DNA of 64,000 bases from positions 34,775 through 98,774 of the forward strand of contig CAZMNX010000001.1 in assembly GCA_964567825.1 (NCBI GenBank). Reading direction: 5' to 3'. Origin of the DNA: an uncultured Candidatus Saccharibacteria bacterium (lineage in GTDB: Bacteria; Patescibacteriota; Minisyncoccia; Phycocordibacterales; GWA1-40-21). Below, piece by piece: positions 37,978-54,049 of the stretch. The translations under genes were made by a program, and so were the position numbers. The notes beneath the pieces are model-generated. The model was not told the origin of the DNA. It saw only the letters and a program-made list of their open reading frames with translations, and searched no databases. Position 1 is the first letter of the stretch. Every line of letters begins with the position of its first letter.

Positions 37978-37983
37978 GCCAAC

Positions 37984-38014
37984 AAAAAACCACCCGCATC
38001 ATGGGTGGTTTTTT
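37984..38014. terminator. bidirectional rho-independent terminator (AAAAAACCACCC-GCATCAT-GGGTGGTTTTTTG)
   Basis: Perfect 8-bp stem flanked by A6 and T6, between the convergent SBP2 and livG genes. Confidence 0.7.
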
Positions 38015-38015
38015 G

Positions 38016-38768
38016 TTACTTCCCCAAATACGCCTCGATGACTTCGGGCTTAGACAGGACACTCACGGGCTCACCCTCGGCCAATAGTTTGCCGCTATCT
38101 AAAACGATCACATGGTCGGACAGGTCGCGAATGAGGTCCATATTATGCTCGATCAGCACCACAGTTTTGCCCTGAGTCCGCAATTCCTTTAAAAGACCAG
38201 AAACGATTTGAATCATCTCGGGAAACAGCCCAGCAAAAGGCTCGTCAAAAAAGATCGTATGCAAACCATCATCTTCTCCCAAATCCATCGCCAACACTCG
38301 CCCGATTTCTAATAATTTCCTCTGCCCGTAAGATAGATTGTGAGCGAGTTCATTTCTTTTTTCCCACAAATTCACTTTTTTCAAAACTTGCTCGGCAATA
38401 TCCAGATGAAATTTTTTATGCTTTTCAAAAAGAGATCCGAAGACGCCCCTCGAAGTAATCACAATCAAAATATTGTCCAAAACCGGCATTTGTTCGAACA
38501 AACGCACGTCTTGAAAGGTCCTGGTAATGCCAAAACTGGGTATATCAAAGGCTTTGATTTTTTTCAAAACGGTATGCTCGCCCACTTTCACCAAACCACT
38601 ATCATACGGAGTAAAACCGGTCAGCAAATTCACCAAGGTTGATTTCCCCGACCCATTTGGCCCAATCACGCCGGTGATTTTTCCTTCGGGAAAAGAAATA
38701 GATAGACCGTCCACTGCCTTCACTCCCCCAAAGTGCTTCTTGATATTTTCTGTTTTCACAATCGGCAT
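38016..38768 (-). CDS. livG: branched-chain amino acid-type ABC transporter ATP-binding protein (LivG-like)
   Basis: GPNGSGKST, LSYGQRKLLEIGRVL, IFFDEPFAG; 250 aa. Confidence 0.75.
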   Translation of the reverse strand: MPIVKTENIKKHFGGVKAVDGLSISFPEGKITGVIGPNGSGKSTLVNLLTGFTPYDSGLVKVGEHTVLKKIKAFDIPSFGITRTFQDVRLFEQMPVLDNILIVITSRGVFGSLFEKHKKFHLDIAEQVLKKVNLWEKRNELAHNLSYGQRKLLEIGRVLAMDLGEDDGLHTIFFDEPFAGLFPEMIQIVSGLLKELRTQGKTVVLIEHNMDLIRDLSDHVIVLDSGKLLAEGEPVSVLSKPEVIEAYLGK

Positions 38769-38823
38769 TCATACAGTATAACAAAAAACCATTGACAGCA
38801 AAATCACGTTTGTTATACTTTAA

Positions 38824-39282
38824 CTACTTACGGCCTTCGGGCTCGGAACCACCTTTACAAGAGGTGGTTTCATATTTACGTTCTTTATCATCAATGACGT
38901 CTTTCATCCTGTTTTTTATTTCTAAAAAATTTTCCTCATTAATATAACCGATTTTATCAATCAATCTCTTGCTATCGATTAACTTTATTTGAGAAAGGTT
39001 GACTGTATTCTTGGTCTCAACACTAAAAACATCAAAACTGAAATAGTACTTCCCCAATTTGTGTTGTGAAGTCAAAGAAAGTCCCCAGAAAGTTTCGGCA
39101 TTAAACTTTTTGAATATTAAAACCGGTCTTCTAAATTCATCGCCCTTCCCATCTTGTTCATATCCGACATTCAGACCTAAGTGACACCACCAGACTTCTC
39201 TAGTGCGAAAAAACACATTATCTATGTCTTTCAGATTGATAATCTTTTTCTTCTCATTCCACCGATCAAAATCTTTCCCCAT
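38824..39282 (-). CDS. MazF/PemK-family endoribonuclease toxin-like protein, no adjacent antitoxin ORF
   Basis: VWWCHLGLNVGYEQDGKGDEFRRPVLIF...LSLTSQHK and C-terminal SQIKLIDSKRLIDKIGYI fit the PemK/MazF fold pattern; only 83 nt of non-coding DNA lie upstream. Confidence 0.6.
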   Translation of the reverse strand: MGKDFDRWNEKKKIINLKDIDNVFFRTREVWWCHLGLNVGYEQDGKGDEFRRPVLIFKKFNAETFWGLSLTSQHKLGKYYFSFDVFSVETKNTVNLSQIKLIDSKRLIDKIGYINEENFLEIKNRMKDVIDDKERKYETTSCKGGSEPEGRK

Positions 39283-39365
39283 ATCGCCCGACAGTCTAAC
39301 ACAAGAAAAAAGACAGATTTTAAACTAAAATGTGGATAAATCGAGGGAGTATTTTTTGTGAGGTA

Positions 39366-40517
39366 CTAGTACTTCACCCAGCCATCCTTGGTGTAAGTTT
39401 GAAGATAAGTTTTTCTGTTTGAATTACCCAAATTATCAAATGAAAGCTCCCCAGCCGCACCGTTCATCTTGATCTGACGTAAGTTGTCCGCCACCTCCTT
39501 GGTATTATTTATATCTTTGCTTTTTTCTAGGGCCCATTTTAAAGCATAAACGTCATCATAGGCATAAGTAGCATCGGCAATTAGTAAGTCCACACCATAG
39601 GCTATTTTGTAATTCTTTTGAAACTCAATCGCTTTTATATTATTTGAATCTAAATCATAGTTATTATCTACCACCCTCATCTTTACTAAAGTTTCTTTAA
39701 ATTGCTCATACATAAATGGTAAAACATATACAGTGGAACCCGAATACAATCTCTTGTTATCCAGACCAAAGACTTTCAGTTGTTTGGTTATATTTATAGT
39801 CTCAGACCCTGGAAAACCATAAACCACAATGGCGTCAGGATTAAAAGATTTGATTTTCGCCATTTGAGTCTTAAAATCTAAATCTCCAAAGCTAAACATT
39901 TGATCTAAAAACTGAGAACTAACAGCTTCGGATTTAAGCCCGGCCAGAAAGACCTCGGTATCACCAAAATTTACAGCCATAATCCCCACTTTTTTCATGC
40001 CATCATTATTCAAGGCCTGACCAATAGAACGACCCACTTCCTCCATATCCCAATAATCCCTGAACACGTAGTTACCTGTCCCAACTCGAGAAACGGTGGC
40101 TGTAATATAAAGAACTTTATTCTGTTCCGCCACCGGCGCCGAGGCGAGTGACTGGCTAGAAAAAGCGGTAAAAAGATACCTTACCTCATCTATATTAATT
40201 AACTTTTGTACAGCACTAACAGATTTTGTAACATCGCCCCAATCATCCTCAAAAAGAACTTCCAGTCTCTTTCCATCAACCCCACCATTACCGTTAATTT
40301 CTTTTACGGCTAATTCAATTCCCCTTTTGTATTCAATACCATAAGTAGAAAACTGCCCCGTTAAAGGATAGACAGCTCCGATTTTAATAAAATTATTGTC
40401 GTTTGATTTTGTAACACCAGTCAGGACAGCTAAAATTACTATAACCGTTATCGCCGACCATAAGATGTACCTTGTTTTATTTTTCATCACATGAGTATTG
40501 TGCCACAACATCGCCAT
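39366..40517 (-). CDS. Liv-type ABC substrate-binding protein (module 3)
   Basis: IKIGAVYPLTGQFSTYGIEYKRGIELAVKEINGNGGVDGK. Confidence 0.7.
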   Translation of the reverse strand: MAMLWHNTHVMKNKTRYILWSAITVIVILAVLTGVTKSNDNNFIKIGAVYPLTGQFSTYGIEYKRGIELAVKEINGNGGVDGKRLEVLFEDDWGDVTKSVSAVQKLINIDEVRYLFTAFSSQSLASAPVAEQNKVLYITATVSRVGTGNYVFRDYWDMEEVGRSIGQALNNDGMKKVGIMAVNFGDTEVFLAGLKSEAVSSQFLDQMFSFGDLDFKTQMAKIKSFNPDAIVVYGFPGSETINITKQLKVFGLDNKRLYSGSTVYVLPFMYEQFKETLVKMRVVDNNYDLDSNNIKAIEFQKNYKIAYGVDLLIADATYAYDDVYALKWALEKSKDINNTKEVADNLRQIKMNGAAGELSFDNLGNSNRKTYLQTYTKDGWVKY

Positions 40518-40617
40518 CTAGTCCTTATTTTAGAATAAGCAAACAATACATTTTAATTATAGCTTGTATATAAAGCATATTATGCTATACTAAAGTCGTC
40601 CAAAGTTTGGACTTATT

Positions 40618-41358
40618 ATGAATACGCTAAACAAATTGATCCGGTACGGCCTCAGCAAATTCGAAGCCACCGTATATCTAGACGTCCTTTCCCACCTGGA
40701 TTCATCTGCTTTTGCTATCTATAAAAGAGTTGGGCTACCAAAAACTAGCGTCTATCATATTTTGGAATCGTTAAGAAAACGAGGCCTGGTAGAATCTTGG
40801 AAAAAAAATAACATCCAGCACTTTTCAGCTGGTAGTCCAAAAAGACTTCTATTTGAGCTAAAGGAAAAAGAAGATCTTCTACAATCCCTCGTTCCAGACC
40901 TCACTACTCTTTCCAATCAAGAAAACCAGACCAACTCTGTAAAAATGTACGAGGGAGCGAATAATTTAAAAAAGGTTATGCGGGAGGCATTAGAATATTG
41001 CGCAAAGCATAAAACCAACAGCATGCTAACGGCCGCCACAGATTCCATATCGTCCGATATGCCAAAATTTATGGATGACTGGCTCAAAGAAAGAGAAAAA
41101 ATGAATATCTTTGTAAAAATGCTTATACCTAAAGGCAAAATACCATTAGGCTTTCAGTCAAATAGCCTTCGAGAAACAAAGTTTCTACCAGAAAATTTCT
41201 TCCTACCAGGCATAATAAACATTTATGGCAACCGAGTAGATCTGTTCTCATTCAAGAACAATAAAATAAACTCTGTGGTCATTGATTCCGAAGCCTACAC
41301 CGACCTGTTGCGTAACTTCTTCTTGCTTACTTGGAATAACGCCGAGAAAACAAACTAA
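40618..41358 (+). CDS. TrmB-family transcriptional regulator (module 3)
   Basis: GLSKFEATVYLDVLSHLDSSAFAIYKRVGLPKTSVYHILESLRKRGLV. Confidence 0.65.
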   Translation: MNTLNKLIRYGLSKFEATVYLDVLSHLDSSAFAIYKRVGLPKTSVYHILESLRKRGLVESWKKNNIQHFSAGSPKRLLFELKEKEDLLQSLVPDLTTLSNQENQTNSVKMYEGANNLKKVMREALEYCAKHKTNSMLTAATDSISSDMPKFMDDWLKEREKMNIFVKMLIPKGKIPLGFQSNSLRETKFLPENFFLPGIINIYGNRVDLFSFKNNKINSVVIDSEAYTDLLRNFFLLTWNNAEKTN

Positions 41359-41360
41359 CC

Positions 41361-42392
41361 CTACCTCACACATTTCCCGCCTTCAATCTTAGTCAACACC
41401 AAATCTCGCTCGACGACATTGTTTTTGTTAAAAGTAATGTCGCCATAGACCCCTTCAATTTTGTTTGTTTTGAGATATGACAGAGCCTTTTCGGGATTAT
41501 TATTGGTTGCCTTCATGGCGTAAAGCGCCGTCAAAGTATTTTCGTAGGCTAAACCGTAAAAAGTCGAGTAGCTGGCGCCGAGTTTTGATATAGGATATTC
41601 ATAACTGTAATTACCGTCCAAACTAAATCTCTTATCAGTCAAAACACCAGGAAAAGTACAAGACAGGTAGGTCAGATACGGAACCTTAACTCCCAAGGTC
41701 GACAAATCAGCAAAAACTTGATTAAGAGACGGACCATACCCCACGACAACCAAGACATCTGGTTGAAACTTCTTTATCTTCAAAGCCTCGGTCTTGAAAT
41801 CGGTGGTTGTCTTTTCAAAAGAAAAAGTTGCCACCGCTCGATCCGAGGCAATCGTCTTCTGCCATTCGTTTTTCCAAATGTTTCCAAACTCATCATTGAT
41901 GTTCACGATGGCTACCCTTTTCCAATTCGAATTAGCATTTACCTGCTTACTCACATCATTTAATGACGGCACTAAACCTTGAAACAAATAGGTTTTGTCT
42001 TTAGTCAAACCATAACCAGCCGCATCGGTAATCAAAACGACCTTGGCTTTTTCTGCGAGTGGCGCCACCGCATTGGTCACCCCACTTAAACCAGTCACAG
42101 CAAATTTTACTTGATCTATCTCGAATAGTTTATTAGCTGCCGACACCGCCACCTTAGGATCATTAGCTGAATCCTCTAAAATTAAATCAACTTTTATGCC
42201 AGTTTGCTCTTCAAAATGTCTCACCGCATCTTTTACCCCCTGAGCCGAAAGCTCACCAAAGATCGCTGAAGGGCCAGACAAAGCATACAAAGCACCAATC
42301 TTTAAGGTTCCAGTTTTTGTTCTATTAAAACCGAAATAAACGCCGATTACTAGTAAAGCTACAACGACTAAAGCAATAATTATCTTTTTCAT
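41361..42392 (-). CDS. Liv-type ABC substrate-binding protein (module 4)
   Basis: LKIGALYALSGPSAIFGELSAQGVKDAVRHFEEQTG. Confidence 0.7.
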   Translation of the reverse strand: MKKIIIALVVVALLVIGVYFGFNRTKTGTLKIGALYALSGPSAIFGELSAQGVKDAVRHFEEQTGIKVDLILEDSANDPKVAVSAANKLFEIDQVKFAVTGLSGVTNAVAPLAEKAKVVLITDAAGYGLTKDKTYLFQGLVPSLNDVSKQVNANSNWKRVAIVNINDEFGNIWKNEWQKTIASDRAVATFSFEKTTTDFKTEALKIKKFQPDVLVVVGYGPSLNQVFADLSTLGVKVPYLTYLSCTFPGVLTDKRFSLDGNYSYEYPISKLGASYSTFYGLAYENTLTALYAMKATNNNPEKALSYLKTNKIEGVYGDITFNKNNVVERDLVLTKIEGGKCVR

Positions 42393-42477
42393 ACTTGCAT
42401 ATTATCAAACAAATGGTAACATATATCAATAAGCAGTTTTGTCGGAAAATATCGACATAATTGTGATAATAATCACA

Positions 42478-43221
42478 ATGAATATTCAGGAACTAGAAAA
42501 AATCGGCTTAACAGGCAAGAAAGCGAGAGTTTATTTAGCAGTCCTAGAGGTTGGCCAAGCTACAATTATTCAAATCGCTAGAAAGACCCTGATTAAAAGA
42601 ACGACTCTATATGATCTGGTAGCCGACCTAACAGCCCAAGGCTACTTATCAGAAATTAAAAAAGGTAATAAAAATATTATCATCGCCGAGGATCCTGCGG
42701 TTTTGATTAAAACTTTCGAGAATCGATTGGACGAGGTGAGAGACTTAGCGCCAACTCTATTTAAAATCTTCAACTCCGTCACTTCCCGCCCCCAGATTCG
42801 TTTCTATGAAGGAGTCGAGGGCATAAGGCATATGATGGAAGAGGCTTTGGTAATGAAACAAAAAGAAGTTCACTATTGGGGCCCGGCGGATAATATTATT
42901 GAGATTTTGGGAAATGTTTATATTGATAAATGGTTGAAAAGAAGAGTCCGAGCGGGTATCCAGACTCACGGCCTCCTCACCCAAAATGCCCCACGAGGCT
43001 CAAAACCGTTCCTGAAAACCGATAAAAACGCCTTGCGTGAGGTGCGTTGGCTATCCACCAAAACTATTTTTGATGGCATCCTCTGGCTTTATGATAATAA
43101 AGTGATGTACATCGCTTCGGCTAAGGATTCCTTTGGCTTCATCATCGAAAGTGACAACTTCACCCAATTTATGAAGGTTATTTTCCAAAGTATGTGGGAG
43201 ACAGCGAGGGAGGATAGGTAG
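42478..43221 (+). CDS. TrmB-family transcriptional regulator (module 4)
   Basis: MNIQELEKIGLTGKKARVYLAVLEVGQATIIQIARKTLIKRTTLYDLVADLTAQGYL; the start was moved from 42439 to 42478 by alignment with the paralogs. Confidence 0.65.
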   Translation: MNIQELEKIGLTGKKARVYLAVLEVGQATIIQIARKTLIKRTTLYDLVADLTAQGYLSEIKKGNKNIIIAEDPAVLIKTFENRLDEVRDLAPTLFKIFNSVTSRPQIRFYEGVEGIRHMMEEALVMKQKEVHYWGPADNIIEILGNVYIDKWLKRRVRAGIQTHGLLTQNAPRGSKPFLKTDKNALREVRWLSTKTIFDGILWLYDNKVMYIASAKDSFGFIIESDNFTQFMKVIFQSMWETAREDR

Positions 43222-43223
43222 AA

Positions 43224-43254
43224 CAAAAAACACCCAGGAAGGGGTGTTTTTTGT
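43224..43254. terminator. bidirectional rho-independent terminator (AAAAAACACCC-AGGAA-GGGGTGTTTTTTG)
   Basis: Hairpin flanked by A and T runs, between the convergent regulator-4 and SBP5 genes. Confidence 0.7.
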
Positions 43255-43277
43255 TTACCATAATCAATGTCCCGAGT

Positions 43278-44405
43278 TTAGATTTTTGTAGGGACACCTT
43301 TAACTAGCTTGAAGGCTGATTCAACGATTGGTGCCGCACCGTTATTATCAATAGTCACTAAACCAGTTGAACCTTGATAATTTGAGATTTTAAGGAGACT
43401 AGATTTTACAGCACTCGCAGTAATCTCGCCCTTAATACCCGGCAATACCTTGGTCAACAAAATATTTGTTGCATCGTAGGCTGGGTGTGTGGTCAGAGGA
43501 AGAATTGGACCTCGACCAACTAAAGCCTTAAACTTGGCGTCAAAAGCTGCAGCTTGACCGTTGGTTGCATCAGCATCCCAATAAGCGAAGGTCGTTCCTT
43601 CAGCCTTACCATCTGCCAATTGCTGTGCTATTGGGCTAGTAATAGTACCAGTGGTGTAGAAAGATTGTTTCATTCCTAAATCTCGAGTTTGTTTCATAAT
43701 CAAGCCAGTTTCATCATGACCCAGCAAAACCAAACCCTCAACATTCCCCGTCTTAAGTTTTAATAATTGAGTTCTAAAATCTTTATCTTCATAGTTGAAT
43801 GATTCGATTTGTACTTTACCACCCTTACTTTCAAACTCTTTCTTGAATGAGTTCGCCACAATCGCCATGAAAGTATCTTTGGTTGAATACATAATACCGG
43901 CGCTCTTTTTACCCTCGGCCGCCATCTGATCGGCTAGTGAAATACCAATTGATTCGGTTTCTGTCGCTAAACAAAACACATTTTTGGAAGCATTAGCCAC
44001 CTCCTTATTACAATCCAGCGGATTAATTATTACGACCCCATCCTGAGCCGCCTTATCCATCACCGCGAACAAACCGCCATAACTAGCGACTAAAATAACT
44101 TTTACTTTATCGACGTTCACAAGCTTCTCGTAAGCTGAAACCGTATTCTTGGTTAAGTACTGATCGTCTTCAGAAATTAGCTCGACTTGTCTACCATTTA
44201 CCCCGCCAGCCTTGTTAACATCGGCAACCGCAATTTCCACCGCTTTCACCGCGTCCATACCCAGCACCGCTGATGGACCAGTAAGCGGACCAATGTAACC
44301 AATCTTGATTGGCTCAGTTGTGCCGACAGGTGAAACTCTGCTAAAATACATACTAAGGCCGATAATCACGATTATTAGAACGATAATGCTTAATGTCTTT
44401 TTCAT
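43278..44405 (-). CDS. Liv-type ABC substrate-binding protein (module 5)
   Basis: IKIGYIGPLTGPSAVLGMDAVKAVEIAVADVNKAGGVNG. Confidence 0.7.
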   Translation of the reverse strand: MKKTLSIIVLIIVIIGLSMYFSRVSPVGTTEPIKIGYIGPLTGPSAVLGMDAVKAVEIAVADVNKAGGVNGRQVELISEDDQYLTKNTVSAYEKLVNVDKVKVILVASYGGLFAVMDKAAQDGVVIINPLDCNKEVANASKNVFCLATETESIGISLADQMAAEGKKSAGIMYSTKDTFMAIVANSFKKEFESKGGKVQIESFNYEDKDFRTQLLKLKTGNVEGLVLLGHDETGLIMKQTRDLGMKQSFYTTGTITSPIAQQLADGKAEGTTFAYWDADATNGQAAAFDAKFKALVGRGPILPLTTHPAYDATNILLTKVLPGIKGEITASAVKSSLLKISNYQGSTGLVTIDNNGAAPIVESAFKLVKGVPTKI

Positions 44406-44527
44406 ATAAATTATTTGTTATTAAGATTGATAAACTTGACCGTATATCCATCTTAGCATATAATATATTAATTGTCAACCAAAAAGGGTGACAATAATGA
44501 GTAAAAAGACAAAAAAGGGCTAAAAAT

Positions 44528-45289
44528 ATGAATATTTCCAAAGAAATTCAAAAACTGCTAGACCTCGATTTCACTCCAAATGAGGCTTCCGTCTACTCAA
44601 TCCTGATCCAGAGCGGTTCGACCAAGGCAGGCGTGATAATCAGCAAAACCGGGCTCCATCGTAACCTAGTTTATACCGCTTTGGATCATTTAATTGCCCG
44701 AAAAATCGTCTCGGTTCAGGATTCCAAGAGCGGGCGAGTCTATACCGCTATTTCACCAAACATTTTAATTGAGGAGTATGACCATAAAAAAGAATTGGCC
44801 GAGGAGCTAACAAAAAGTTTTAAACAAAAAAGTTTTATCGGCGATCAAGAAATTTCTGTGCATGAGGGCAATGAAGACTATTTAAAACTTTTGACTAGTG
44901 TGATCAATTCCCTACCCCAAGGCTCAACCAAGCTCGTTTTGGGTACTGGCGGGGCGGATTTTATGCGCCATACCATGTTGTCGATTTGGGACAAATACCA
45001 TGAGGTAGCGAAAAAACAACAGATAAAGATAAAGATGCTCGCTTACGGCGAACAAAGAGGTGCCCTAGAGAAAGTAACGGCCGCCGAAGGAATTTACAAC
45101 ATTAAATACCTGCCAGCTGATACAGAAAACCCCGCTGGTATTCATATTTATCCCGAAATAAATACTGTCTTAAACATTATTTACTCCACTGAATTCCAAC
45201 CAGTTACGGCCATAAAAATCAAAAATAAATCCTTAACCCAGGGTTATCTAAATTTATTCAATAATCTGTGGAAGGAGGGAGAGAAGTAA
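44528..45289 (+). CDS. TrmB-family transcriptional regulator (module 5)
   Basis: LDFTPNEASVYSILIQSGSTKAGVIISKTGLHRNLVYTALDHLIARKIV. Confidence 0.6.
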   Translation: MNISKEIQKLLDLDFTPNEASVYSILIQSGSTKAGVIISKTGLHRNLVYTALDHLIARKIVSVQDSKSGRVYTAISPNILIEEYDHKKELAEELTKSFKQKSFIGDQEISVHEGNEDYLKLLTSVINSLPQGSTKLVLGTGGADFMRHTMLSIWDKYHEVAKKQQIKIKMLAYGEQRGALEKVTAAEGIYNIKYLPADTENPAGIHIYPEINTVLNIIYSTEFQPVTAIKIKNKSLTQGYLNLFNNLWKEGEK

Positions 45290-45335
45290 AATTTGACAGT
45301 AAAATCACACCCGCTATAATGATTGTAATAGACGT

Positions 45336-45369
45336 GAACGGCATCCTAAATGGGTGCCGTTCGTTTTTT
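45336..45369 (+). terminator. rho-independent terminator (GAACGGCA-(11-nt loop)-TGCCGTTC-GTTTTTT)
   Basis: 8-bp stem plus T-run after the regulator-5 stop. Confidence 0.6.
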
Positions 45370-46000
45370 ATAAATCTGTACGTTTTAGGTGCTCTCGGAG
45401 GTAAGTGAAATCCATAAATTTATCCCCGGCAAATCTCCTAATTTCTTTCGCTGTTCTTAGCCCACTAGCTAACACCATAACTTTTTTCTCGTCAACATTA
45501 CGTAAATATTTCAAAACGGGCAAAAAGTCTCCGTCACCAGAAAGTACAAGAACCTGCCCAAACAAACCCCTATCACGCATTAAGTAAAAAGCCATTTCCA
45601 CATCACAATTTGCTTTACGTTTTTTACTACCAGCCTCATCTTCATAAATCTTTACCGGCTTCAAGACAAGTTTGTACTTAAACTCTTCCAGTTTTTTATA
45701 AAAACGGACTTGTTTTAGATGACGTTCGAGAATAGTAAGTTCAACATTAGTAAAACTTTTGCTATTTTTCTCAACATAATCTATAAGGTATTTTTCTAGA
45801 TCCGCCAAAGAAACGGTGTCGTTTGTCAGGTAATCAAAGGAAAACTTGTGAATTTCTACACCTCCAAAATAATAGATTTTGGATACTCCGAACTTACCTC
45901 GGAGATATTTATGAAGTTTTTCAAAATCAATTTTCCAACCCAAACTTTTCTCCCCTCCATAGAATAAATTGGATGCATCAATATAAGCGAATGTTTCCAT
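45368..46000 (-). CDS. NYN-domain (LabA-like, PIN-fold) putative RNase
   Basis: AYIDASNLFYGG ... VLSGDGDFLPVLKYL, characteristic of NYN/LabA domains. Confidence 0.6.
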   Translation of the reverse strand: METFAYIDASNLFYGGEKSLGWKIDFEKLHKYLRGKFGVSKIYYFGGVEIHKFSFDYLTNDTVSLADLEKYLIDYVEKNSKSFTNVELTILERHLKQVRFYKKLEEFKYKLVLKPVKIYEDEAGSKKRKANCDVEMAFYLMRDRGLFGQVLVLSGDGDFLPVLKYLRNVDEKKVMVLASGLRTAKEIRRFAGDKFMDFTYLREHLKRTDL

Positions 46001-46097
46001 ATCGCCAGGCAGTCTAGCACGAGAAAAAAGAGGTCCTGGCGAAGAACTGTGGATAAAAACAACCCTATTTTACAAGGAAGGAGACCTACTACTCGTT

Positions 46098-46964
46098 TTA
46101 CAATTTATACTCCCCAACCAGCCCCTGTGGCCTATATAGCATAAGTAAGACTAAGAGAAGACCGTACACCACTTGGCGCATTTGGGCAGCGACATCGGTG
46201 GGAAAACCAACGAAACGGAGAATTTCGGGGAGAAGAATGAGGAAAATAGCGCCGACGACTGAGCCTTTCAGGCTGGCCATACCGCCGAGGATAATGATAG
46301 CGAGAATAAAGATACTTTCGTTCAAACCAAAAGTGGAGGGGTCAATAAAAGTAATATACGTCGCAAAAAGTCCACCAGCCAAACCGGCCATCCCAGCGGT
46401 AATAATAAAAATAGTTAGTTTAAATAATTTGGTGTTGTAACCAAACACCGATAAGGCTTTCTCGTCTTCTCTAATACCTTTCAAGACTCGGCCAAAAGAG
46501 GATTTGGTGATTCCTAAACTAATTAAATAAACCAGACCCGCACCAACGATCGTTAGAATCAGAAAAGATAAATTACTACTTAATTCAAAGCCAAACAATG
46601 ACGGCCGATTGATACCGGGAATGCCGAGTGGGCCGCGAGTTAAACTTTCCCAATTTAGAAAGATGCTGTAGATAATAATGTTGAAACCAAAAGACACTAA
46701 AGCATAGTAATCATCTTTAAAACGGCTCAAGATCAGGCCAAGGAGGCCCGCAATGAGCCCCGCCAGGATAATCCCCACGAGCAAGGCTAGAAAAAAGTTC
46801 CAGCCATATACCGTCATCAGAATCGCCACAGCATAGGCGCCAATGCCATAAAAAGCGGCGTGAGTGACGGAAAGTAACCCCGTATACCCCACCACCAAAT
46901 TTAGTGAGAGTGCTAGTGGCACATATATTCCGATTAGAATGGCGAGATGAATAAAGTATTCCAT
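46098..46964 (-). CDS. livM: branched-chain amino acid-type ABC transporter permease (LivM-like)
   Basis: VGYTGLLSVTHAAFYGIGAYAVAIL and about 8 TM. Confidence 0.7.
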   Translation of the reverse strand: MEYFIHLAILIGIYVPLALSLNLVVGYTGLLSVTHAAFYGIGAYAVAILMTVYGWNFFLALLVGIILAGLIAGLLGLILSRFKDDYYALVSFGFNIIIYSIFLNWESLTRGPLGIPGINRPSLFGFELSSNLSFLILTIVGAGLVYLISLGITKSSFGRVLKGIREDEKALSVFGYNTKLFKLTIFIITAGMAGLAGGLFATYITFIDPSTFGLNESIFILAIIILGGMASLKGSVVGAIFLILLPEILRFVGFPTDVAAQMRQVVYGLLLVLLMLYRPQGLVGEYKL

Positions 46965-46981
46965 TAGTTTTAGATTATATC

Positions 46982-47728
46982 TTATTTTCTAACTTCAGAC
47001 ACCAGCCACAAGGCACTAAATAAGCCACGCATGGTATTTGAGAACTCTTTACTCTCAACAATAAAACCAAAATTTTCTTGTGGAGTAGAAATAATCGCCA
47101 CTTTATTATCATAAATAAAGATCGTCTCTGTGATGTGTATGCCTTCAGGGGCAATTCTCAATTCTCGCATTATATTAGTTTGGTAGATATCCTCCATTAC
47201 TTCAGTATTTTTCATTCGAATACTCTTGGCAGTAATGTTCTTTTCAACCCTCAGTTTCAACCATTGATCAATATAATCTTTTCCCACAGTGTCGATAACA
47301 TCTTTCCCCGATCCAATATATAAATATTCTCGGCTTTTAACTTTCAAAACATCGTCAAAAATACCCTGAACAGCTTTTTGACCCGAAAAATACCTCATAG
47401 TTGGGCCGTCTGTTTTCTGCCTGAATACTTTCAACAAATCCCCCGACAGTCTTTGGGCAATTACCATCTGAGTCTCAGCTTGTTTTTTCAAAATCTCGGG
47501 AGATTCCGCCTTATATTTAACTTTCTTCGAGCCAGGCACGACCGAAACTAACCCTTTTTCTAATAATTCATCCAGAACGAGATAGCAAGTTGGCCTTTTG
47601 ATTCCTGCTCTACCCGCTAATTCAGAGACAGAGAAAGTGTCCAGTTCTAAGGAGCGGACATAGACGATCGCCTGTCTTTCTGTCAGCCCTAATGATATAA
47701 GTTTATTTTTAGATTCAATAAAATCCAT
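46982..47728 (-). CDS. TrmB-family transcriptional regulator (module 6)
   Basis: GLTERQAIVYVRSLELDTFSVSELAGRAGIKRPTCYLVLDELLEKGLV. Confidence 0.65.
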   Translation of the reverse strand: MDFIESKNKLISLGLTERQAIVYVRSLELDTFSVSELAGRAGIKRPTCYLVLDELLEKGLVSVVPGSKKVKYKAESPEILKKQAETQMVIAQRLSGDLLKVFRQKTDGPTMRYFSGQKAVQGIFDDVLKVKSREYLYIGSGKDVIDTVGKDYIDQWLKLRVEKNITAKSIRMKNTEVMEDIYQTNIMRELRIAPEGIHITETIFIYDNKVAIISTPQENFGFIVESKEFSNTMRGLFSALWLVSEVRK

Positions 47729-47905
47729 ATACCGACCATATTAGCAAAAGCCGAATAATTTGTCAACATCTGTGACAACTTATTGTAAATTAGACAGTAG
47801 CGTTGTTTCTAGCCACATTTTAGTGTTATGTGTCCCAGTTTTTGACACAAACCAAAGAACCTGCTATACTTTAAATAGAAAATTATAAATTATTACATAA
47901 TATAA

Positions 47906-48988
47906 ATGAATAAAACATATAAAATAGCGTTGGCGATTGTAGTCTTGATACTTATTGGATCTGCTTTATTTTGGAACGCGGGCCATAAAAGCAATAATGT
48001 GGCGGTTGGTGCCATATTATCTCTAACTGGTCCGGCTCAATATTTTGGTGAGGAAACCAAAAAGGGCATGGATTTGGCTAACCAGGACGGCGCGGTGAAT
48101 TTTGTTTACGAGGATAGCCGATCGGATGCAACTACGGCGGTCTCGGCTTATAACAAACTTAAATCACAGAATATTAAGGCCGTAGTCCTATCGCTGAGCA
48201 ATGTGGCCGAAGTGGTTGTTCCCCTAACCGAAAAAGATCAGATATTTTCTGTACAAAATCTTGTCTCGGCTAGAAAGGTTCAGGGTGATATGTCGGTACG
48301 GTTTTTCACCTCGGCTGAACAAGAAGCGCCAATCATGGCAAATTTTGCGGCGAGTAACCTGAAATTAAATAGGGTTGCGATATTAGCCAGCACCGATGCC
48401 TACGGTAAGACTTACGCTGAAGTCTTCAAAACTACTTTTGAAAATTTTGGTGGTCAGGTCGTCATAAATGAAAGTTATGACAAGAAAGACCAAGATTTCA
48501 AAACCCAGCTGGCAAAAATAAAGATTTCTGATGCCGAAGGTGTCTATATCATTGGTCTTGATACTCATTTGGTCAGTATATTCAAGCAAATGAATGAGCT
48601 TGGATTAAAACAAATTAAAATGACTAATTGGATAATGGCCTCTCCAGGCGTTCAGGCCAAAGTCGGGGCTAATAGTGAAGGTGTGTATATGACGACCCCA
48701 GATTACTATATTGCCGGCAATAAAAAAGTGGCTGATTTTACCGAAGCTTATCAGAAGAAATATGGAACGCTCCCAAGTGCTTACTCGGCTATCGGTTACG
48801 ATACAACTAGTTTGTTTAGGGAAGCAGTAAAGGGCGCAAAAAGCTCTCAGGATATTCAGAATAATTTCAAAAATATCAAGAACTTTGACGGCTTGATGGG
48901 TAAATTAAATGTAAATGAAAAGGGAGAAATAACCATTCCGCTTATTCCAGCCAAGATGGAAGGTGGAAAGATGGTTGTGATAAAATAA
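47906..48988 (+). CDS. Liv-type ABC substrate-binding protein (module 6)
   Basis: VAVGAILSLTGPAQYFGEETKKGMDLANQ. Confidence 0.7.
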   Translation: MNKTYKIALAIVVLILIGSALFWNAGHKSNNVAVGAILSLTGPAQYFGEETKKGMDLANQDGAVNFVYEDSRSDATTAVSAYNKLKSQNIKAVVLSLSNVAEVVVPLTEKDQIFSVQNLVSARKVQGDMSVRFFTSAEQEAPIMANFAASNLKLNRVAILASTDAYGKTYAEVFKTTFENFGGQVVINESYDKKDQDFKTQLAKIKISDAEGVYIIGLDTHLVSIFKQMNELGLKQIKMTNWIMASPGVQAKVGANSEGVYMTTPDYYIAGNKKVADFTEAYQKKYGTLPSAYSAIGYDTTSLFREAVKGAKSSQDIQNNFKNIKNFDGLMGKLNVNEKGEITIPLIPAKMEGGKMVVIK

Positions 48989-49008
48989 GTATCTTCACAA
49001 ATAAAATA

Positions 49009-49043
49009 ACAAAAAACTAGCCTGTAATGTGGGCTAGTTTTTT
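49009..49043. terminator. bidirectional rho-independent terminator (AAAAAACTAGCC-TGTAATGTG-GGCTAGTTTTTTG)
   Basis: Perfect stem with A6/T6 flanks, between the convergent SBP6 and SBP7 genes. Confidence 0.7.
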
Positions 49044-49069
49044 GTTATCTTAGATCCTATTAAACGCTA

Positions 49070-50200
49070 TTACTCCCCCAACTTCACAAACTGACCGTCT
49101 TTTACCGTCTTCATAAAGATGTTTCTGGTCACGTCTCCGTTTTGATCAAAACTAAATTTACCAGAAGCACCGTCGAAATCTTTTATTCCGAGGAGAGCTT
49201 GTTTAATTTTGTCAGTATCAGTTGCTCCAGCCTCATCTATTGCCAAAGCTATAACTTTAAGAATGTCGTGTCCAGAAGCGACGAAAAAGTCCGCTGTTTT
49301 ACCCGCACCACGTACTCGATCTGCAAAACCTTTTGAAATTACGGAATCAGACTCGTTATACATGAATGGGTAAATTATTCCCTCGATCTCTTTTGGATAT
49401 TGTTTGAGCAAGGCACCGTTTTCTGTCGCCCAAGTAGAAACATATTGAGCCTTAATACCTAGCTGATTAGCCTGAGAAATCAAAAGTCCGATAGAAGGCC
49501 CAGAGTTATGAATATCAAAAATAACATCTGGGTTTTTTGGTTTAATTCTTGTCAGCTCGGTGCGCACATCCAAACCAGGCGAGGCAAATTGCTCATCCGC
49601 CACCACCTGGCCACCAAGCTTCTCAAACTCCGCTTTAAAATCGGTATAATGTTCTTGAGTAAAAGCCGCGGTTACCCTAGCAAAAGCCACGGTCTCTACC
49701 CCACTCTCCTTTAGATAGGAAGCTAAAGGTTTAACAAGTTCTGCCGTTGTGGGTATTAACCTAAACATATAGTCGTCCTTAGTAAAGACATCTAGAGATG
49801 AGTTTGGCGAAATTACAATAATTTTCTTTTCGGTAGTATAAGGCAATATTGTCAAAGTGGTTCCATTCCAGGAATCACCGATAATCACCTTCACACCATC
49901 AACGTCTATCAGTTTTTTAGCAACGGTCAGCGCAGTGGTATTATCGGTTTTACTATCCTCAATAATCAAACTAACTTTTTGACCATCAATACCGCCATTA
50001 GCGTTTATACCAGCCAAGGCTAATTGCAAACCATTCACCAATTGCTCGCCAAAATAAGCTCCTGGGCCAGTCAGAGAGGCAATAACACCAATCTTTAACT
50101 CACCCTTATTACTTGGCTTATTAAATAAGCCAAGACCAATGATAGCAATGACCACCAGCACTATTCCTAATATTAACCATTTCTTATTCTTATTTTCCAT
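49070..50200 (-). CDS. Liv-type ABC substrate-binding protein (module 7)
   Basis: LKIGVIASLTGPGAYFGEQLVNGLQLALAGINANGGIDG. Confidence 0.7.
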   Translation of the reverse strand: MENKNKKWLILGIVLVVIAIIGLGLFNKPSNKGELKIGVIASLTGPGAYFGEQLVNGLQLALAGINANGGIDGQKVSLIIEDSKTDNTTALTVAKKLIDVDGVKVIIGDSWNGTTLTILPYTTEKKIIVISPNSSLDVFTKDDYMFRLIPTTAELVKPLASYLKESGVETVAFARVTAAFTQEHYTDFKAEFEKLGGQVVADEQFASPGLDVRTELTRIKPKNPDVIFDIHNSGPSIGLLISQANQLGIKAQYVSTWATENGALLKQYPKEIEGIIYPFMYNESDSVISKGFADRVRGAGKTADFFVASGHDILKVIALAIDEAGATDTDKIKQALLGIKDFDGASGKFSFDQNGDVTRNIFMKTVKDGQFVKLGE

Positions 50201-50372
50201 GTAATTTATAAATCTTAATTAATAACAACCCTCGACATAGATAAGGATACCATGTTATAATATATTAGTCACATTTGTCTTTACACAAATTGAAGCTTGC
50301 AAAAAAGCCTTTTGTAATATAGACTTATTTAGTCGATATTTTGTCTTTTATTTCCGACATATCCAAGAAAAA

Positions 50373-51119
50373 ATGCAAATAAACAAATATAAAAATGCCC
50401 TGATTGGCTTTGGTCTTAAAGAAAACGAGGCAGATGTTTATGTTACAGCCCTCAAATTAGGCCCCACCCCCATCCTCCCCATCGCCCGAGAGACCGGCAT
50501 AAGACGAACTACCGTGTATGAAATAATAAAGTCTTTGATTGCTAAAGGACTGATCACCGCCGAACTTAAGGGGTTCAAGAAACTTTTCTGTGCTACTCAC
50601 CCCAAAAATTTGATCTCTATTTTTGAAAATAAAAGAGAAACACTAGAAACAGTGATCCCAAGCCTAACTACCCTTTACAAGACTCAAGGCAATACTGATT
50701 CAATTAAAACTTATGAAAGCCTCGAGTCTATAAAGTCACTCTATTCGGAAATACTGGACAATTTTCGTTCTGGTGATTTTTGTTATGTAATTGGTGATAC
50801 TGACAAATTTATCCAGAACGACCCTAAATTTTTCATGAAATATGTCGAGGAGAGGGCGAAGAAAAATATTGATATCAAACTTATCCTATCAGACAGTGAA
50901 ATGTCTATCGAAAGAAAGAAGTATGCGAAAAATTTTAATTCGCAAATAAGGCTTTTACCCAAAAATACTGTTCTGTCAGCAAATTTTACGGTGACAAAAA
51001 ACCTTCTTTTGACCCAAGCTGTTGGTGGGGGTCAGTTGGCAGTGACTATTAATAATCAAGAAATTATAAATCTCCAAAAGAACCTTTTTGAGGTCCTTTG
51101 GAATTCCTTGCCAGAATAA
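50373..51119 (+). CDS. TrmB-family transcriptional regulator (module 7)
   Basis: GLKENEADVYVTALKLGPTPILPIARETGIRRTTVYEIIKSLIAKGLI. Confidence 0.65.
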   Translation: MQINKYKNALIGFGLKENEADVYVTALKLGPTPILPIARETGIRRTTVYEIIKSLIAKGLITAELKGFKKLFCATHPKNLISIFENKRETLETVIPSLTTLYKTQGNTDSIKTYESLESIKSLYSEILDNFRSGDFCYVIGDTDKFIQNDPKFFMKYVEERAKKNIDIKLILSDSEMSIERKKYAKNFNSQIRLLPKNTVLSANFTVTKNLLLTQAVGGGQLAVTINNQEIINLQKNLFEVLWNSLPE

Positions 51120-51120
51120 A

Positions 51121-52197
51121 CTATTTTACCTCTACGAAACCACTACCATTCCAAGTCTTAACCACCTGTTCCAAATCAAATGATCCGTCGCCCAGATATC
51201 TATATCCTCCAGATACGCCAGTAAAGTCTTGCCTCAATAGCTTCATAACCCCTGTATTTAGGCCGTCTTCTTTGATGAGGGTATTGGCAAGTTGGGTCAC
51301 AGCATCGTACAGATTATCCCCAGCTGTGGCCGGATACATATTATATTTGGCAAAATATTTATTTAGAAAATCAGCATTTTGATCTCCCACAAACAGTTGA
51401 TTATCTAGTGCACCCTCGGCAATCTTTATCTGGCCTGAAGACTCAAAATTTAAAATGCCAACTAATGGCACTTCCCAGCCAAGGTCTTGAATTTGTTTAG
51501 CAAACGAGCCGACTTGGGGCGATAAATAAACAATCACTACATCAGGTTTTGCGGATTTCAATTTGGCGATTGCTGTTCTGAAATCATTTTCGCCCTTAGC
51601 CACTGATTCATTGGCGACTATCTCATAACCAAGAGTTGGTAGCCTCTTCGCTGTTTCATCAGCGTTAGCTTTTGGTCCGTCAGCCTGATTCCAAATTATC
51701 GCTATTTTTTTGTATTTATCTTTTAGAATAAGGTTCTCTAGGGCGGTTATAAGTAACGGTGAACTTGGCACATACCTAACTACCCACTTCTTATTTAGAT
51801 TAATATCTGAGGAATTACCCAAGCCAATCATAGGAATTTCTGCCTTCTCGGCCACATACGAAGCAGCAACTGAAGCGGCTGAACTATATGTAACTAATGC
51901 TCTCACTCGATCCACCTGAATTAATTTTTGGGCGGCCGAAACGGTCAGCTTTGGATCTAGTTGATCATCCTCAAAAATAATTTCAATTTTTTCTCTCACA
52001 GCAGGAGAAAGATCAGCTAAGGCCATCTCCACCACCTTTTTACTTGCCTCTCCGGCCGCCTGAGCTGGACCGGTCAAGGGAAGAATAACGCCAATCTTTA
52101 TGGCCTCATTATTTCTGGGGTTTGAAATAGTGCCTAAATAAAACACCCCGGCAACGACCACCACCAAAATAACGACAATACTTAATGTTTTTCTCAT
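51121..52197 (-). CDS. Liv-type ABC substrate-binding protein (module 8)
   Basis: IKIGVILPLTGPAQAAGEASKKVVEMALADL. Confidence 0.7.
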   Translation of the reverse strand: MRKTLSIVVILVVVVAGVFYLGTISNPRNNEAIKIGVILPLTGPAQAAGEASKKVVEMALADLSPAVREKIEIIFEDDQLDPKLTVSAAQKLIQVDRVRALVTYSSAASVAASYVAEKAEIPMIGLGNSSDINLNKKWVVRYVPSSPLLITALENLILKDKYKKIAIIWNQADGPKANADETAKRLPTLGYEIVANESVAKGENDFRTAIAKLKSAKPDVVIVYLSPQVGSFAKQIQDLGWEVPLVGILNFESSGQIKIAEGALDNQLFVGDQNADFLNKYFAKYNMYPATAGDNLYDAVTQLANTLIKEDGLNTGVMKLLRQDFTGVSGGYRYLGDGSFDLEQVVKTWNGSGFVEVK

Positions 52198-52353
52198 ATT
52201 ATATTTTTATTATTAATAGAACGACACGTAAAGCATATCAAGTAAATAGTATTTAATCTATAATAATTAGACGATTATCTTACTTTTACCAAAAAACTCT
52301 TGCTTTACATAGTTTAAAATGCTAGAATAAGTAGTCATAAATGATGACTTTTT

Positions 52354-53127
52354 ATGCAAAATACAAAAACAATTAGTTCATTGGTAGAGCTTGGCCTAGA
52401 TAAAGAAGAGGCAGAAATATATCTATATCTCACAAAAGTGGGGTCTAATAAGAAAGAAAATACGGCTTTTGCTATCGGGAAGAACCTAGGCATACCCAGA
52501 AGCTCCGCCTATTTATATATAGAGAGGCTCATGAATAAGGACCTGGTTTCATCCTACAAAATTAACAACAAAAAACATTTCTTAGCCGAAAATCCAAACA
52601 GGATCGAAAAATCTTTAGATAAAAAGAAGGAAATTCTTGGTTCAATAGTTGCTGACATAAAAAATATGGCCGAGAGTCAGGAAAAGGATTTTTCCACAAG
52701 GGTATATCGCGGTTCCGGCAGTTTAGAGCGCGTTTATGATGAAATTTTTGACAAAAGAGAGATGGCGAAATTCAAAAATATTTATGTCTTGACCAATACC
52801 CTACTCAGCAAGCTGCTACCCAAAAACTTACCGATAGAATTAGATAAAGTAAAAAAAATAAACAACATTTACACCAAAATGATCCTTATCCCTGATAAAT
52901 CAGATCTGGGCTCCTATTTCCAAAGCGACAGTCACCGAGAAGTACGGACCTTACCAGAAGGTTCTGTCTTCAACGGTTCTATTTATATTTATGGAGACAA
53001 AATGGCCCTATTTTCTCTAGACGAAAAGGACCCACTTTCTATGATCATAGAATCCCCCACAATCGTACAGATGGTCAAATCTTTCTTTTTGTGTACTTGG
53101 GAGCTACTAGACAAAAAAGTTTCCTGA
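52354..53127 (+). CDS. TrmB-family transcriptional regulator (module 8)
   Basis: GLDKEEAEIYLYLTKVGSNKKENTAFAIGKNLGIPRSSAYLYIERLMNKDLV. Confidence 0.6.
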   Translation: MQNTKTISSLVELGLDKEEAEIYLYLTKVGSNKKENTAFAIGKNLGIPRSSAYLYIERLMNKDLVSSYKINNKKHFLAENPNRIEKSLDKKKEILGSIVADIKNMAESQEKDFSTRVYRGSGSLERVYDEIFDKREMAKFKNIYVLTNTLLSKLLPKNLPIELDKVKKINNIYTKMILIPDKSDLGSYFQSDSHREVRTLPEGSVFNGSIYIYGDKMALFSLDEKDPLSMIIESPTIVQMVKSFFLCTWELLDKKVS

Positions 53128-53179: not shown

Positions 53180-54049
53180 CTACTTCCTCCCGAAAATTCC
53201 TCGCGCACGGAAGAGGAGAAAGATAATGAGTAAACCAAAGGCGATGGCGTCTTTCCACTCGCCGGAGATTTTCCAGATACCGAAATTTTCGACAAAACCC
53301 AGGAGAAAAGCACCGAGGATACCGCCAGACAAACTGCCGACTCCACCGATAATTGAGGCGATGACTCCTTTCAGAAGCAGGCTCATACCCATGGTTGGCT
53401 CGAGTCCGGTGTCAAAACCAGCCAAAATTCCGGCATAGCCAGCAATCGCCGAACCGACAAAGAAAATAATGCCGATTACTTTATTAGTATTGATGCCGAC
53501 GATACGAGAAACTTCTTCGTCGTCGCTGACAGCCTTGATCGATTTGCCAAACAAAGTAAATTTCAAAATAATTCCCAAGCCGATGGCGATAACAAAAACG
53601 GAAATAAACATGTAAAGCTGAATGTCGGTAATAATTCCTCCACCGATATCAAATATTTTAGAGACGCTGTTCTGGCGGCTTAAGGTTTGAAACTGGCTAG
53701 TGAATAAAATAGCGATAATAGCTTGGATAGCCGTGAGCAGGCCGAGAGAAGCGACCAGCAAAACCATATGTGAGCTTTTGCGGTTCCGTAGTTTGCGATA
53801 AACCAAAACTTCGGACAAATAACCAAGCAAACCAGCCACCAAAACTCCTAAAATAATACTGATTATAATCGGCCAACCTAAAATTTTCGTTAAAAAGAAA
53901 ACGGTATAACCGCCGGCCACCGCCAAGGCACCGTGCGCTAGATTAAAAAACTTAGTCGCACCGTAAATTAAGTTGAAACCAATCGCCACCAAAGCATATA
54001 GCGATCCGGCAATTAAGCTGTTGGCAATAAGTTGGGGTAAAATATCCAT
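53180..54049 (-). CDS. livH: branched-chain amino acid-type ABC transporter permease (LivH-like)
   Basis: ANSLIAGSLYALVAIGFNLIYGATKFFNLAHGAL N-terminus typical of LivH. Confidence 0.7.
   Translation of the reverse strand: MDILPQLIANSLIAGSLYALVAIGFNLIYGATKFFNLAHGALAVAGGYTVFFLTKILGWPIIISIILGVLVAGLLGYLSEVLVYRKLRNRKSSHMVLLVASLGLLTAIQAIIAILFTSQFQTLSRQNSVSKIFDIGGGIITDIQLYMFISVFVIAIGLGIILKFTLFGKSIKAVSDDEEVSRIVGINTNKVIGIIFFVGSAIAGYAGILAGFDTGLEPTMGMSLLLKGVIASIIGGVGSLSGGILGAFLLGFVENFGIWKISGEWKDAIAFGLLIIFLLFRARGIFGRK

Follow-up and report, generated by a model that had tools for sequence, protein, structure and literature searches.

In a 64,000-nucleotide stretch of contig CAZMNX010000001.1 from an uncultured Candidatus Saccharibacteria bacterium (the window, whose numbering is used throughout), one Liv-type ABC importer occupies 33.1-54.0 kb and is interleaved with eight divergent gene pairs, which we call modules 1 to 8. 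Each pair consists of a substrate-binding protein (SBP) of the Pfam family Peripla_BP_6 and a regulator of ~250 aa with a TrmB domain (PF01978) at its N-terminus. We found that all eight modules have an inverted repeat built on one core between the two genes, GTC-N9/10-GAC, with N13 in place of N9 or N10 in module 5. Judging from sequence, these dyads are probably the operators to which the adjacent TrmB-like proteins bind as dimers, and there is good in silico support for predicting that they serve in autoregulation by a new bacterial subfamily of TrmB.

The eight regulator/SBP intergenic regions total 1205 nt, or 1.9% of the window. In an unbiased enumeration of 1088 dyads (64 trinucleotide inverted dyads at each of 17 spacings), GTC-N9-GAC ranked first in these regions with six sites (P 1.4e-11) and GTC-N10-GAC ranked second with three (P 1.6e-5). 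Shuffled spacers contained on average 0.065 such sites and never more than 2 (5000 shuffles), compared to the 9 that we observed. The spacing is strict, as GTC-Nx-GAC does not occur in the eight spacers at N3-8, 11, 14-16 or 18 and occurs once at N13, in module 5. Core density is 7.5 sites/kb within the intergenic regions and 0.22/kb outside of them. The longer pattern TTGTC-N7-13-GACAA is found five times in the window, where 0.38 would be expected, and 4/5 of these are in the spacers of modules 1, 2, 5 and 6. The resulting consensus is (T/A/C)GTC-N9 or N10-GAC(A/T), with N13 in the regulator-5 clade.

The original prediction proposed that individual palindromes in modules 3, 4, 5, 6 and 8 were distinct operators, each belonging to its own regulator. 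This was right in part, as flanks and spacing are characteristic of, and retained within, each orthologue group, but all of the sites are variations on a single core that was not seen at the time. A systematic motif search of the eight intergenic regions finds a site in every module, including modules 1, 2 and 7, which had not been named, plus second sites at the SBP1 and SBP6 promoters. When we scored the palindromes in isolation, using dinucleotide shuffles of the 70 nt upstream with perfect arms and GC weighting, p was 0.03 in module 3, 0.02 in module 4, 0.017 in module 5, 0.13 in module 6 and 0.17 in module 8, and modules 1, 2 and 7 gave no signal. Three palindromes therefore stand out singly (modules 3, 4 and 5, p 0.017-0.03), those of modules 6 and 8 do not, and p exceeds 0.1 in five modules altogether. 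Scoring palindromes one by one under-detects the signal.

For comparison we obtained 13 related contigs (given L numbers here), using single regulator proteins as queries. On 12 of them, 27 of 38 regulators have GTC-N9/10-GAC no more than 220 nt upstream. The spacer histogram on these contigs has 18 cases of N9 and 13 of N10, with all other spacings at 3 or fewer, and the core is 42-fold denser upstream of regulators than in the rest of the loci. Footprinting across orthologues showed 8-10 of 10 arm positions to be invariant, compared to 12-53% of the remaining intergenic positions, with no constraint on the dyad interior in modules 2 and 3. Each regulator clade retains its own flanks and spacing among orthologues, and paralogue types not represented in the window have variants of their own in the corresponding position, such as TGTCC-N7-GGACA, TGTCG-N7-CGACA and TGTCAAT-N3-ATTGACA. 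As for the palindromes proposed originally, those of modules 3, 5, 6 and 8 are conserved in orthologues and that of module 4 is not.

The TrmB-like nature of the regulators, also part of the original prediction, holds for all of them. They are encoded at 33864-34634(-), 35869-36672(-), 40618-41358(+), 42478-43221(+), 44528-45289(+), 46982-47728(-), 50373-51119(+) and 52354-53127(+), for regulators 1 to 8 respectively, and PF01978 scores above its gathering cut-off in 8/8 (34.5-53.8 bits, cut-off 25.6). Pairwise identity among the eight is only 19-28%. A profile of the eight paralogues matches TrmB (3QPH) with an E-value of 3e-13, and its alignment to TrmBL2 (5BOX, E 3.5e-6) is full-length. The AlphaFold2 monomer model of regulator 3 (pLDDT 91.6) has a winged helix-turn-helix (wHTH) domain, a long helix directly after the wing (residues 76-100) and an alpha/beta C-terminal domain, and its best fold matches in the PDB are TrmBL2 and TrmB (TrmB fold E 4.5e-11). 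The C-terminal domain of the model also matches the PLD-like proteins Nuc and NucT and the TrmB sugar-binding-domain entry 2F5T. Based on these profile and model matches, the regulators are TrmB-family proteins with a predicted TrmB/TrmBL2 fold. A tyrosine of the recognition helix, in the motif R-x-T-x-Y (Y46 of regulator 3), is invariant in 8/8 paralogues and in an 88-sequence alignment, and the residue at the matching position of archaeal TrmB, Tyr50, is important for DNA binding (PMC4158304).

At 246-267 aa, the regulators contain by fold matches only the PLD-like first subdomain of the C-terminal effector region, and for this reason we assign them to the TrmB family with a TrmBL2-type short architecture. 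A Pfam scan gave no match beyond the HTH in any of the eight, a sugar-binding subdomain of the TrmB/TrmBL1 type was not found in them, and the protein to which they align at full length, the 264-aa TrmBL2, also lacks it. This is a large family, for which a search at E<=1e-10 gave 13,320 cluster representatives. The best-scoring relatives in the representative search (P0170, P0188 and P0236) are long proteins of 370-1079 aa in which a single N-terminal wHTH is followed by 2-7 tandem C-terminal domains of ~135 aa, each ending in ...F..LWNQD, an unusual multi-sensor-domain architecture within the same family. Regulator 5 is the sole paralogue type with ~50%-identical orthologues in many Patescibacteria lineages (records are named Taylorbacteria, Kerfeldbacteria, Uhrbacteria and Parcubacteria). 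Because of these broad orthologues and its odd N13 operator, regulator 5 may be the ancestral member. The close relatives of regulators 3 and 7 are confined to a narrow group. We also considered a recognition-helix code for the base before GTC (K/R-R-x-T versus P-K/R-S/T-S), which fits the paralogues of the window but is broken by L010:5076, a protein with a PRSS helix and a TTGTC site, so we claim no helix-to-operator code.

Promoters of the sigma-70 type and close to consensus are found in the spacers, many of them having a TGn extended -10, and the TGATATACT extended -10 elements noted earlier upstream of regulators 1 and 2 are present (34654-34662 and 36679-36687, minus strand). Relative to these promoters, the dyads are placed either over the -35 of the regulator (modules 2 and 6) or between its -10 and its ATG (modules 1, 3, 5, 7 and 8), while the module-4 site is probably over the regulator -35. 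The sites had been described as abutting start codons, which is so in modules 3, 4 and 8 but not in modules 5 and 6, where 32 and 31 nt intervene. Where abutment occurs it is because leaders are very short or absent. Modules 2 and 6 have next to no leader, and there the operator is found over the -35 rather than at the ATG.

In module 2 the operator TTGTCGGTTTAGTTTGACAA (36701-36720, minus strand, GTC-N10-GAC) has as its right arm the reg2 -35 TTGACA, and TTGTC-N10-GACAA is kept in four to five orthologues of 46-51% identity, with 10/10 arm positions, 2/10 interior positions and 12% of the rest of the spacer invariant. Module 6 has two dyads. O1, TTGTCA-N7-TGACAA (GTC-N9-GAC), which was reported previously with coordinates one base off, is at 47760-47778 on the minus strand and lies over the reg6 -35 TTGACA (47761-47766), and O2, TGTGTC-N9-GACACA (47829-47849, plus strand), lies over the SBP6 -35 TTGACA (47842-47847). 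Three orthologues (79-81%) keep both, at the fixed positions -46 and about -115/-116, with the arms of O1 invariant at 10/10 positions and O2 in the form GTCAAAA-N5-GAC. In both modules the proximal operator arm is thus the -35 TTGACA itself. Since only 6 nt (module 2) and 9 nt (module 6) separate the -10 from the ATG, the regulator mRNAs of these two modules are probably leaderless, and a leaderless start is predicted for module 4 as well.

Modules 1, 3 and 8 have 19-26 nt between the -10 and the ATG, and a dyad of 17-19 bp fills this gap across the expected transcription start. Module 1 O1, TTGTCATAAATAACGACAA (34634-34652, minus strand, GTC-N9-GAC), is located between the reg1 -10 and the ATG, which it overlaps, and TTGTCATAAATAACGACAATG is 100% identical in the L008 orthologue (68% identity), whose -10 and spacer differ. 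Module 1 also has a second dyad, O2, at AGTCA-N7-TGACT (34735-34751, plus strand, GTC-N9-GAC), which overlaps the -35-like GTGACT of the SBP1 promoter, so that modules 1 and 6 each have a second dyad over the -35 of an SBP promoter. In L008 the AGTCA/TGACT arms of O2 are kept and the interior has changed (AGTCACTAAATATGACT). The module-8 operator, AGTCAT-N5-ATGACT (GTC-N9-GAC), was found exactly as first described, AGTCAT-AAATG-ATGACT at 52333-52349 on the plus strand. It begins 4 nt past the -10 TGcTAGAAT (52320-52328) and stops 4 nt short of the ATG. L009 (88%) has the identical sequence, and L012 (80%) has one core mismatch, AGaCAT.

The palindrome originally proposed for module 3, GTCCAAAGTTTGGAC at 40598-40612, is likewise present 5 nt before the ATG at 40618, and forms part of the operator cGTCCAAAGTTTGGACt (40597-40613, plus strand, GTC-N9-GAC), which starts 6-7 nt past the -10 TGcTATACT. 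GTCC-N7-GGAC is kept in the 82, 63 and 55% orthologues, GGAT is found in the 67% one, and the interior varies. In L005 the site is upstream of the -10 TATAAT instead of downstream. A scan flagged 40598-40612 as an intrinsic terminator, a reading that we rejected because there is no upstream gene to terminate; the position is between divergent gene starts, 5 nt before an ATG, and the tail TTATTATGAA has no T-run. We also rejected an AGTCC beside the SBP3 start as a second module-3 operator, as it reflects, on the opposite strand, the Shine-Dalgarno sequence of SBP3 (AAGGAC, 4 nt from its ATG). In every orthologue, as at 40519-40536 in the window, this AAGGAC is paired with (G/T/A)(T/G/A)CC 7-8 nt away, forming an imperfect GTCC-N7/8-GGNC dyad that resembles the module-3 operator. 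We did not count it as a site, but the ribosome-binding site of SBP3 may be covered here by a second, weak operator.

The module-5 operator, ATTGTCAACC-N5-GGgTGACAAT (44471-44495, plus strand), is the one with the GTC-N13-GAC spacing. It was first reported as ATTGTCAACC-N5-GGGTGACAAT, and it is there, with one mismatch, 32 nt before the ATG at 44528 rather than abutting it. The dyad overlaps the SBP5 promoter -35 TTGACA (44473-44478, minus strand) and, 7 nt past the -10, the start region of the reg5 promoter TTGACC-17-TATAAT (44436-44464). Among the 76, 69 and 57% orthologues, GTCAACC...GG(N)TGAC with N13 is kept in L009 (69%) and L013 (57%), the latter a different and GC-richer genome in which the core is still conserved; L008 has GAT, and the outer ATTG/CAAT is not kept among the orthologues. 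A short upstream open reading frame, MSKKTKKG (44497-44523, stop TAA), begins 1 nt after this dyad. Regulator 5 is the sole regulator here with a long leader (~57 nt) and a clear ribosome-binding site, AAGGG.

The module-7 operator TTGTCTTTTATTTCCGACAT (50341-50360, plus strand, GTC-N10-GAC) is 12 nt before the reg7 ATG, and TGTCTTTT...CGACA with N10 is kept in the 84, 67 and 67% orthologues, where the flanks have diverged. The module has a second, upstream promoter, TCGACA-N18-TGtTATAAT (within 50232-50285), followed by a block that is kept in three orthologues, AGTCAyATwTGTCTT(T)ACA, with GTC-N6-GTC as a direct repeat inside it.

Module 4 is the one case in which the site proposed originally did not survive comparison. 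A CRP-like TGTGA-N6-TCACA palindrome, TGTGATAATAATCACA, is present as quoted at 42462-42477, abutting the regulator-4 ATG (42478), and with its full 8-bp arms it can be extended to ATTGTGAT-N4-ATCACAAT (42460-42479, plus strand). It is perfect, it fits the CRP half-site consensus and spacing, and its local shuffle p is 0.02, all of which would be expected of a real CRP/FNR-type site or of a newly evolved second operator in this genome only. We consider either highly improbable, as TGTGATAATAATCACA is absent from 4/4 regulator-4 orthologues (82-91% protein identity), aligning the three orthologues that permit it leaves 0/16 positions of the palindrome invariant, and TGTGA-N6-TCACA with up to one mismatch is not enriched in the window (1 in 64 kb, 1.18 expected). 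The left arm can be accounted for by TGTGATAAT, which may be an extended -10 and is 7 nt from the ATG. No CRP-family protein turned up in the 64-kb window, in which no search aimed at one was made. The palindrome is better explained as a lineage-specific extended -10 plus chance symmetry, and its resemblance to a CRP site is best treated as coincidental.

What is conserved in the module-4 spacer is the neighbouring site TTGTCGGAAAATATCGACAT (42439-42458, plus strand, GTC-N10-GAC). Its sequence TTGTCGGAAAATATCGACA is identical in the orthologues of L001, L002, L004 and L009 (82-91%), TTGTCGGAAAATATCGACA(T/A) is invariant, and 19/20 positions of the site are invariant in the alignment. In L002 (1385-1509, beside an 89% orthologue of regulator 4), ~110 nt of unrelated sequence is found between the conserved operator and the ATG, so that the operator-to-start distance differs by >100 nt from that of the other regulator-4 orthologues.

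Taken together, we propose that each regulator, with its wHTH, long presumed dimerisation helix and TrmBL2-type C-terminal domain, would bind as a dimer to the inverted repeat in its own divergent promoter region, where the bases flanking the core and the spacer length are particular to each orthologue group. Because the sites are over the -35 or across the transcription start, an occupied site is predicted to block RNA polymerase and produce negative autoregulation. At least in modules 1, 5 and 6, where the same or a second site falls on the -35 of the SBP promoter, the SBP gene would be repressed too; the promoters of SBP2, SBP3, SBP7 and SBP8 could be placed only tentatively. The reg1 promoter also appears to drive the downstream ATPase gene, and the reg6 promoter the downstream permease and NYN genes. 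If these genes are co-transcribed, as seems to be the case, repression would extend to the ATPase gene downstream of reg1 and to the permease gene downstream of reg6. We assume that repression would be relieved by a ligand sensed by the C-terminal domain.

Since the same core is present in all modules, mostly with the same TTGTC half-site, one might suppose that a single global factor (a paralogue, for example of the regulator-5 type, or an unrelated protein) reads all of the sites and co-regulates the transporter locus. AGTCA-N7-TGACT is found at both the SBP1 promoter and the module-8 operator, and with one global reader there would be no question of cross-talk, which is otherwise to be expected among six co-resident regulators with TTGTC-type sites. 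We nonetheless regard a global factor as quite improbable, given that every paralogue group has flanks, inner bases and a spacer length that set it apart from the others and that its orthologues share, as in the clade variants GTCC-N7-GGAC (reg3), TGTCGG...TCGACA (reg4), N10 (reg2, reg4 and reg7) and N13 (reg5), and that the sites travel with their regulator where module order differs between genomes. A further idea, which we consider somewhat unlikely, is that up to eight TrmB-like dimers are separated only by an operator code of spacer (N9, N10 or N13) and one or two core-flanking bases, with some sites shared and modules cross-regulating. AGTCA-N7-TGACT, at the SBP1 promoter and the regulator-8 operator, would then be a candidate shared site, and the paired operators 70 bp apart in modules 1 and 6 could loop. 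If such a code were true, the Liv-type importer would give an obligate epibiont with a reduced genome an uptake switch for multiple substrates under hierarchical control.

Two other explanations do without a DNA-binding regulator at these sites. The repeats of modules 1, 3, 5, 7 and 8 are downstream of the -10 and would hence be transcribed, their predicted hairpins have energies between -4.3 and -9.7 kcal/mol (z-scores from about -2 down to -4), and the right arm of the module-3 site, (A/T)GGAC, is 6 nt before the ATG, all of which would fit 5'-terminal leader stem-loops that stabilise the mRNA or, as with GGAC in module 3, mask a weak ribosome-binding site. That the repeats act in RNA is very unlikely, however, because the motif of modules 2 and 6 and their orthologues is over the -35 and would not be transcribed from the regulator promoter, the arm sequence is conserved without compensatory changes and the interior varies without keeping pairing, the module-3 site is upstream of the -10 in L005, and the L012 variant of module 8 folds at only -1.6 kcal/mol. 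The palindromes could also be functionless by-products of AT-rich DNA and of the back-to-back -35 hexamers (TTGACA/TGTCAA) of divergent promoters: those of modules 1, 2, 6, 7 and 8 are not individually significant, several arms coincide with a TTGACA -35, and AT-rich inverted repeats of 5-6 bp are abundant in every spacer. This is almost certainly not the explanation, given the excess and strict spacing of the core described above (9 sites, 0.065 expected, GTC-N9-GAC first of 1088), a non-promoter arm that is invariant in 4-5 orthologues, and sites in modules 1, 3, 7 and 8 that have no -35 box inside them.

We thus favor the reading of the dyads as operators of the adjacent TrmB-like dimers, and several observations weigh against it. 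The core motif was recognised after inspection of the data, which is mitigated by the dyad enumeration and the independent loci. On the related contigs 11/38 regulators lack an exact core match, one core mismatch each is found in a module-8 orthologue (L012) and a module-3 orthologue (L007), and the N13 spacing of module 5 is deviant. The conservation of the arms is partly explained by promoter function where an arm is a TTGACA -35 (modules 2, 5 and 6), and sites downstream of the -10 would also be transcribed, in which case hairpins of modest stability (-4 to -10 kcal/mol) could form. The relative closest in structure, TrmBL2, is a chromatin protein that for the most part binds without sequence specificity (PMC4158304). 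We paired proteins with sites by adjacency and co-conservation, and we infer which protein binds, the direction of regulation, the control by ligand and the leaderless starts.

In archaea, TrmB, TrmBL1/Tgr and VNG1451C bind inverted repeats at ABC-transporter promoters and repress when the site is at or downstream of the core promoter (PMC4158304). The arrangement here mirrors that of TrmB in the trehalose/maltose (TM) transporter operon of Pyrococcus furiosus and Thermococcus litoralis, where a gene of the same family (PF01978) is beside the transporter that it controls and a palindrome is found at the malE promoter next to the transporter. TrmB represses by blocking polymerase recruitment at this inverted repeat of the binding-protein gene malE (PMC4158304). 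The differences are that TrmB recognises TACT-N3-AGTA over BRE/TATA and is a protein of 338 aa with a sugar-binding subdomain, whereas GTC-N9/10-GAC is at sigma-70-type promoters, the regulators are ~250 aa without that subdomain, and eight paralogue/SBP pairs serve one Liv-type transporter. TrmBL1/Tgr, of the Thermococcales glycolytic motif, is similar in being dimeric with an inverted repeat, TATCAC-N5-GTGATA, and TACT-N7-8-GAGTA of the Halobacterium salinarum TrmB (VNG1451C) has a half-site separation near that of GTC-N9/10-GAC. The effect of these regulators is position-dependent, and for Tgr autoregulation has been proposed (PMC4158304). Both differ from the regulators here in half-site sequence, and they are global, with large regulons and sugar effectors, whereas we predict one local regulator per module. 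TrmBL2 (TK0471/PF0496; PDB 5BOX and 5BPD) is the best match both in structure and in full-length sequence, with the same short architecture that lacks the C-terminal ~70-aa sugar-binding part, but it is an abundant chromatin protein on coding and intergenic DNA with little specificity, in contrast to the discrete conserved promoter dyads in these modules.

As a mechanism, repression by a dimer bound to a dyad in the promoter of its own gene is conventional. What sets it apart from the archaeal systems is its setting at bacterial promoters, the new half-site, the short TrmBL2-type architecture and the clustering of eight paralogous modules with a single importer. How Saccharibacteria and the rest of the Patescibacteria, or candidate phyla radiation (CPR), control transcription is almost unexplored, and full-text searches of the library that was searchable gave no paper linking TrmB to Saccharibacteria, Patescibacteria or the CPR. 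It is striking that a reduced genome has at least eight one-component regulators for a single amino-acid-type ABC importer, each with a conserved and predictable candidate binding site on a near-consensus promoter. GTC-N9/10-GAC is a testable cis-regulatory motif for a bacterial TrmB subfamily with thousands of members and offers a means of regulon prediction in uncultured genomes, and the modules contain candidate ligand-controlled promoter/operator pairs for genetic tools in Saccharibacteria-type organisms.

The eight Liv-type SBP genes, all matching Peripla_BP_6 and each divergent from its partner regulator, span 34806-52197. SBP1 to SBP4 are at 34806-35861(+), 36889-37977(+), 39366-40517(-) and 41361-42392(-), and SBP5 to SBP8 at 43278-44405(-), 47906-48988(+), 49070-50200(-) and 51121-52197(-). 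The importer has two ATPase genes, at 33133-33858 (ABC_tran, behind reg1 on the same strand) and 38016-38768, and two permease genes, at 46098-46964 (behind reg6 on the same strand) and 53180-54049. The NYN gene (45368-46000, minus strand) is behind reg6 and the permease gene, on the same strand as both. An Rfam scan detected tRNAs only, with no match in the module region. The number and order of TrmB/SBP modules vary among closely related genomes (L001, L004 and L008-L012), where some SBP genes have no regulator, additional paralogue types are present and mobile-type genes (integrase, Fic, Bro-N, PemK and NYN) are found among the modules, suggesting rapid module gain and loss.

A perfect TTGACA is located 8 nt (SBP1, 34754-34773) or 6 nt (SBP2, 36774-36814) upstream of the TATAAT/TATACT of two SBP promoters, a spacing that is too short for a -35, although the L008 orthologues retain this TTGACA. 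That of SBP2 forms TGTCA-N19-TGACA, and similar arms 18-19 nt apart are found in L008, L012 and L010. These elements may control the SBP genes, either as an operator with a longer spacer or as half-sites that act separately.

We also noted two near-identical strong promoters, TTGACAG(C/T)AAAATCAC...TATA(C/A)T, at 38792-38819 and 45293-45320 (plus strand), one of which matches the consensus at 12/12 positions. They face the 3' ends of the minus-strand PemK/MazF-like gene (38824-39282) and NYN gene (45368-46000), respectively. These twin promoters have no Rfam match, and their motif is absent from the 13 related loci. Each is followed within ~15 nt by a GC-rich hairpin, that at 45334-45364 being a 13-bp terminator, and the pair may make tiny antisense or antitoxin-like RNAs.

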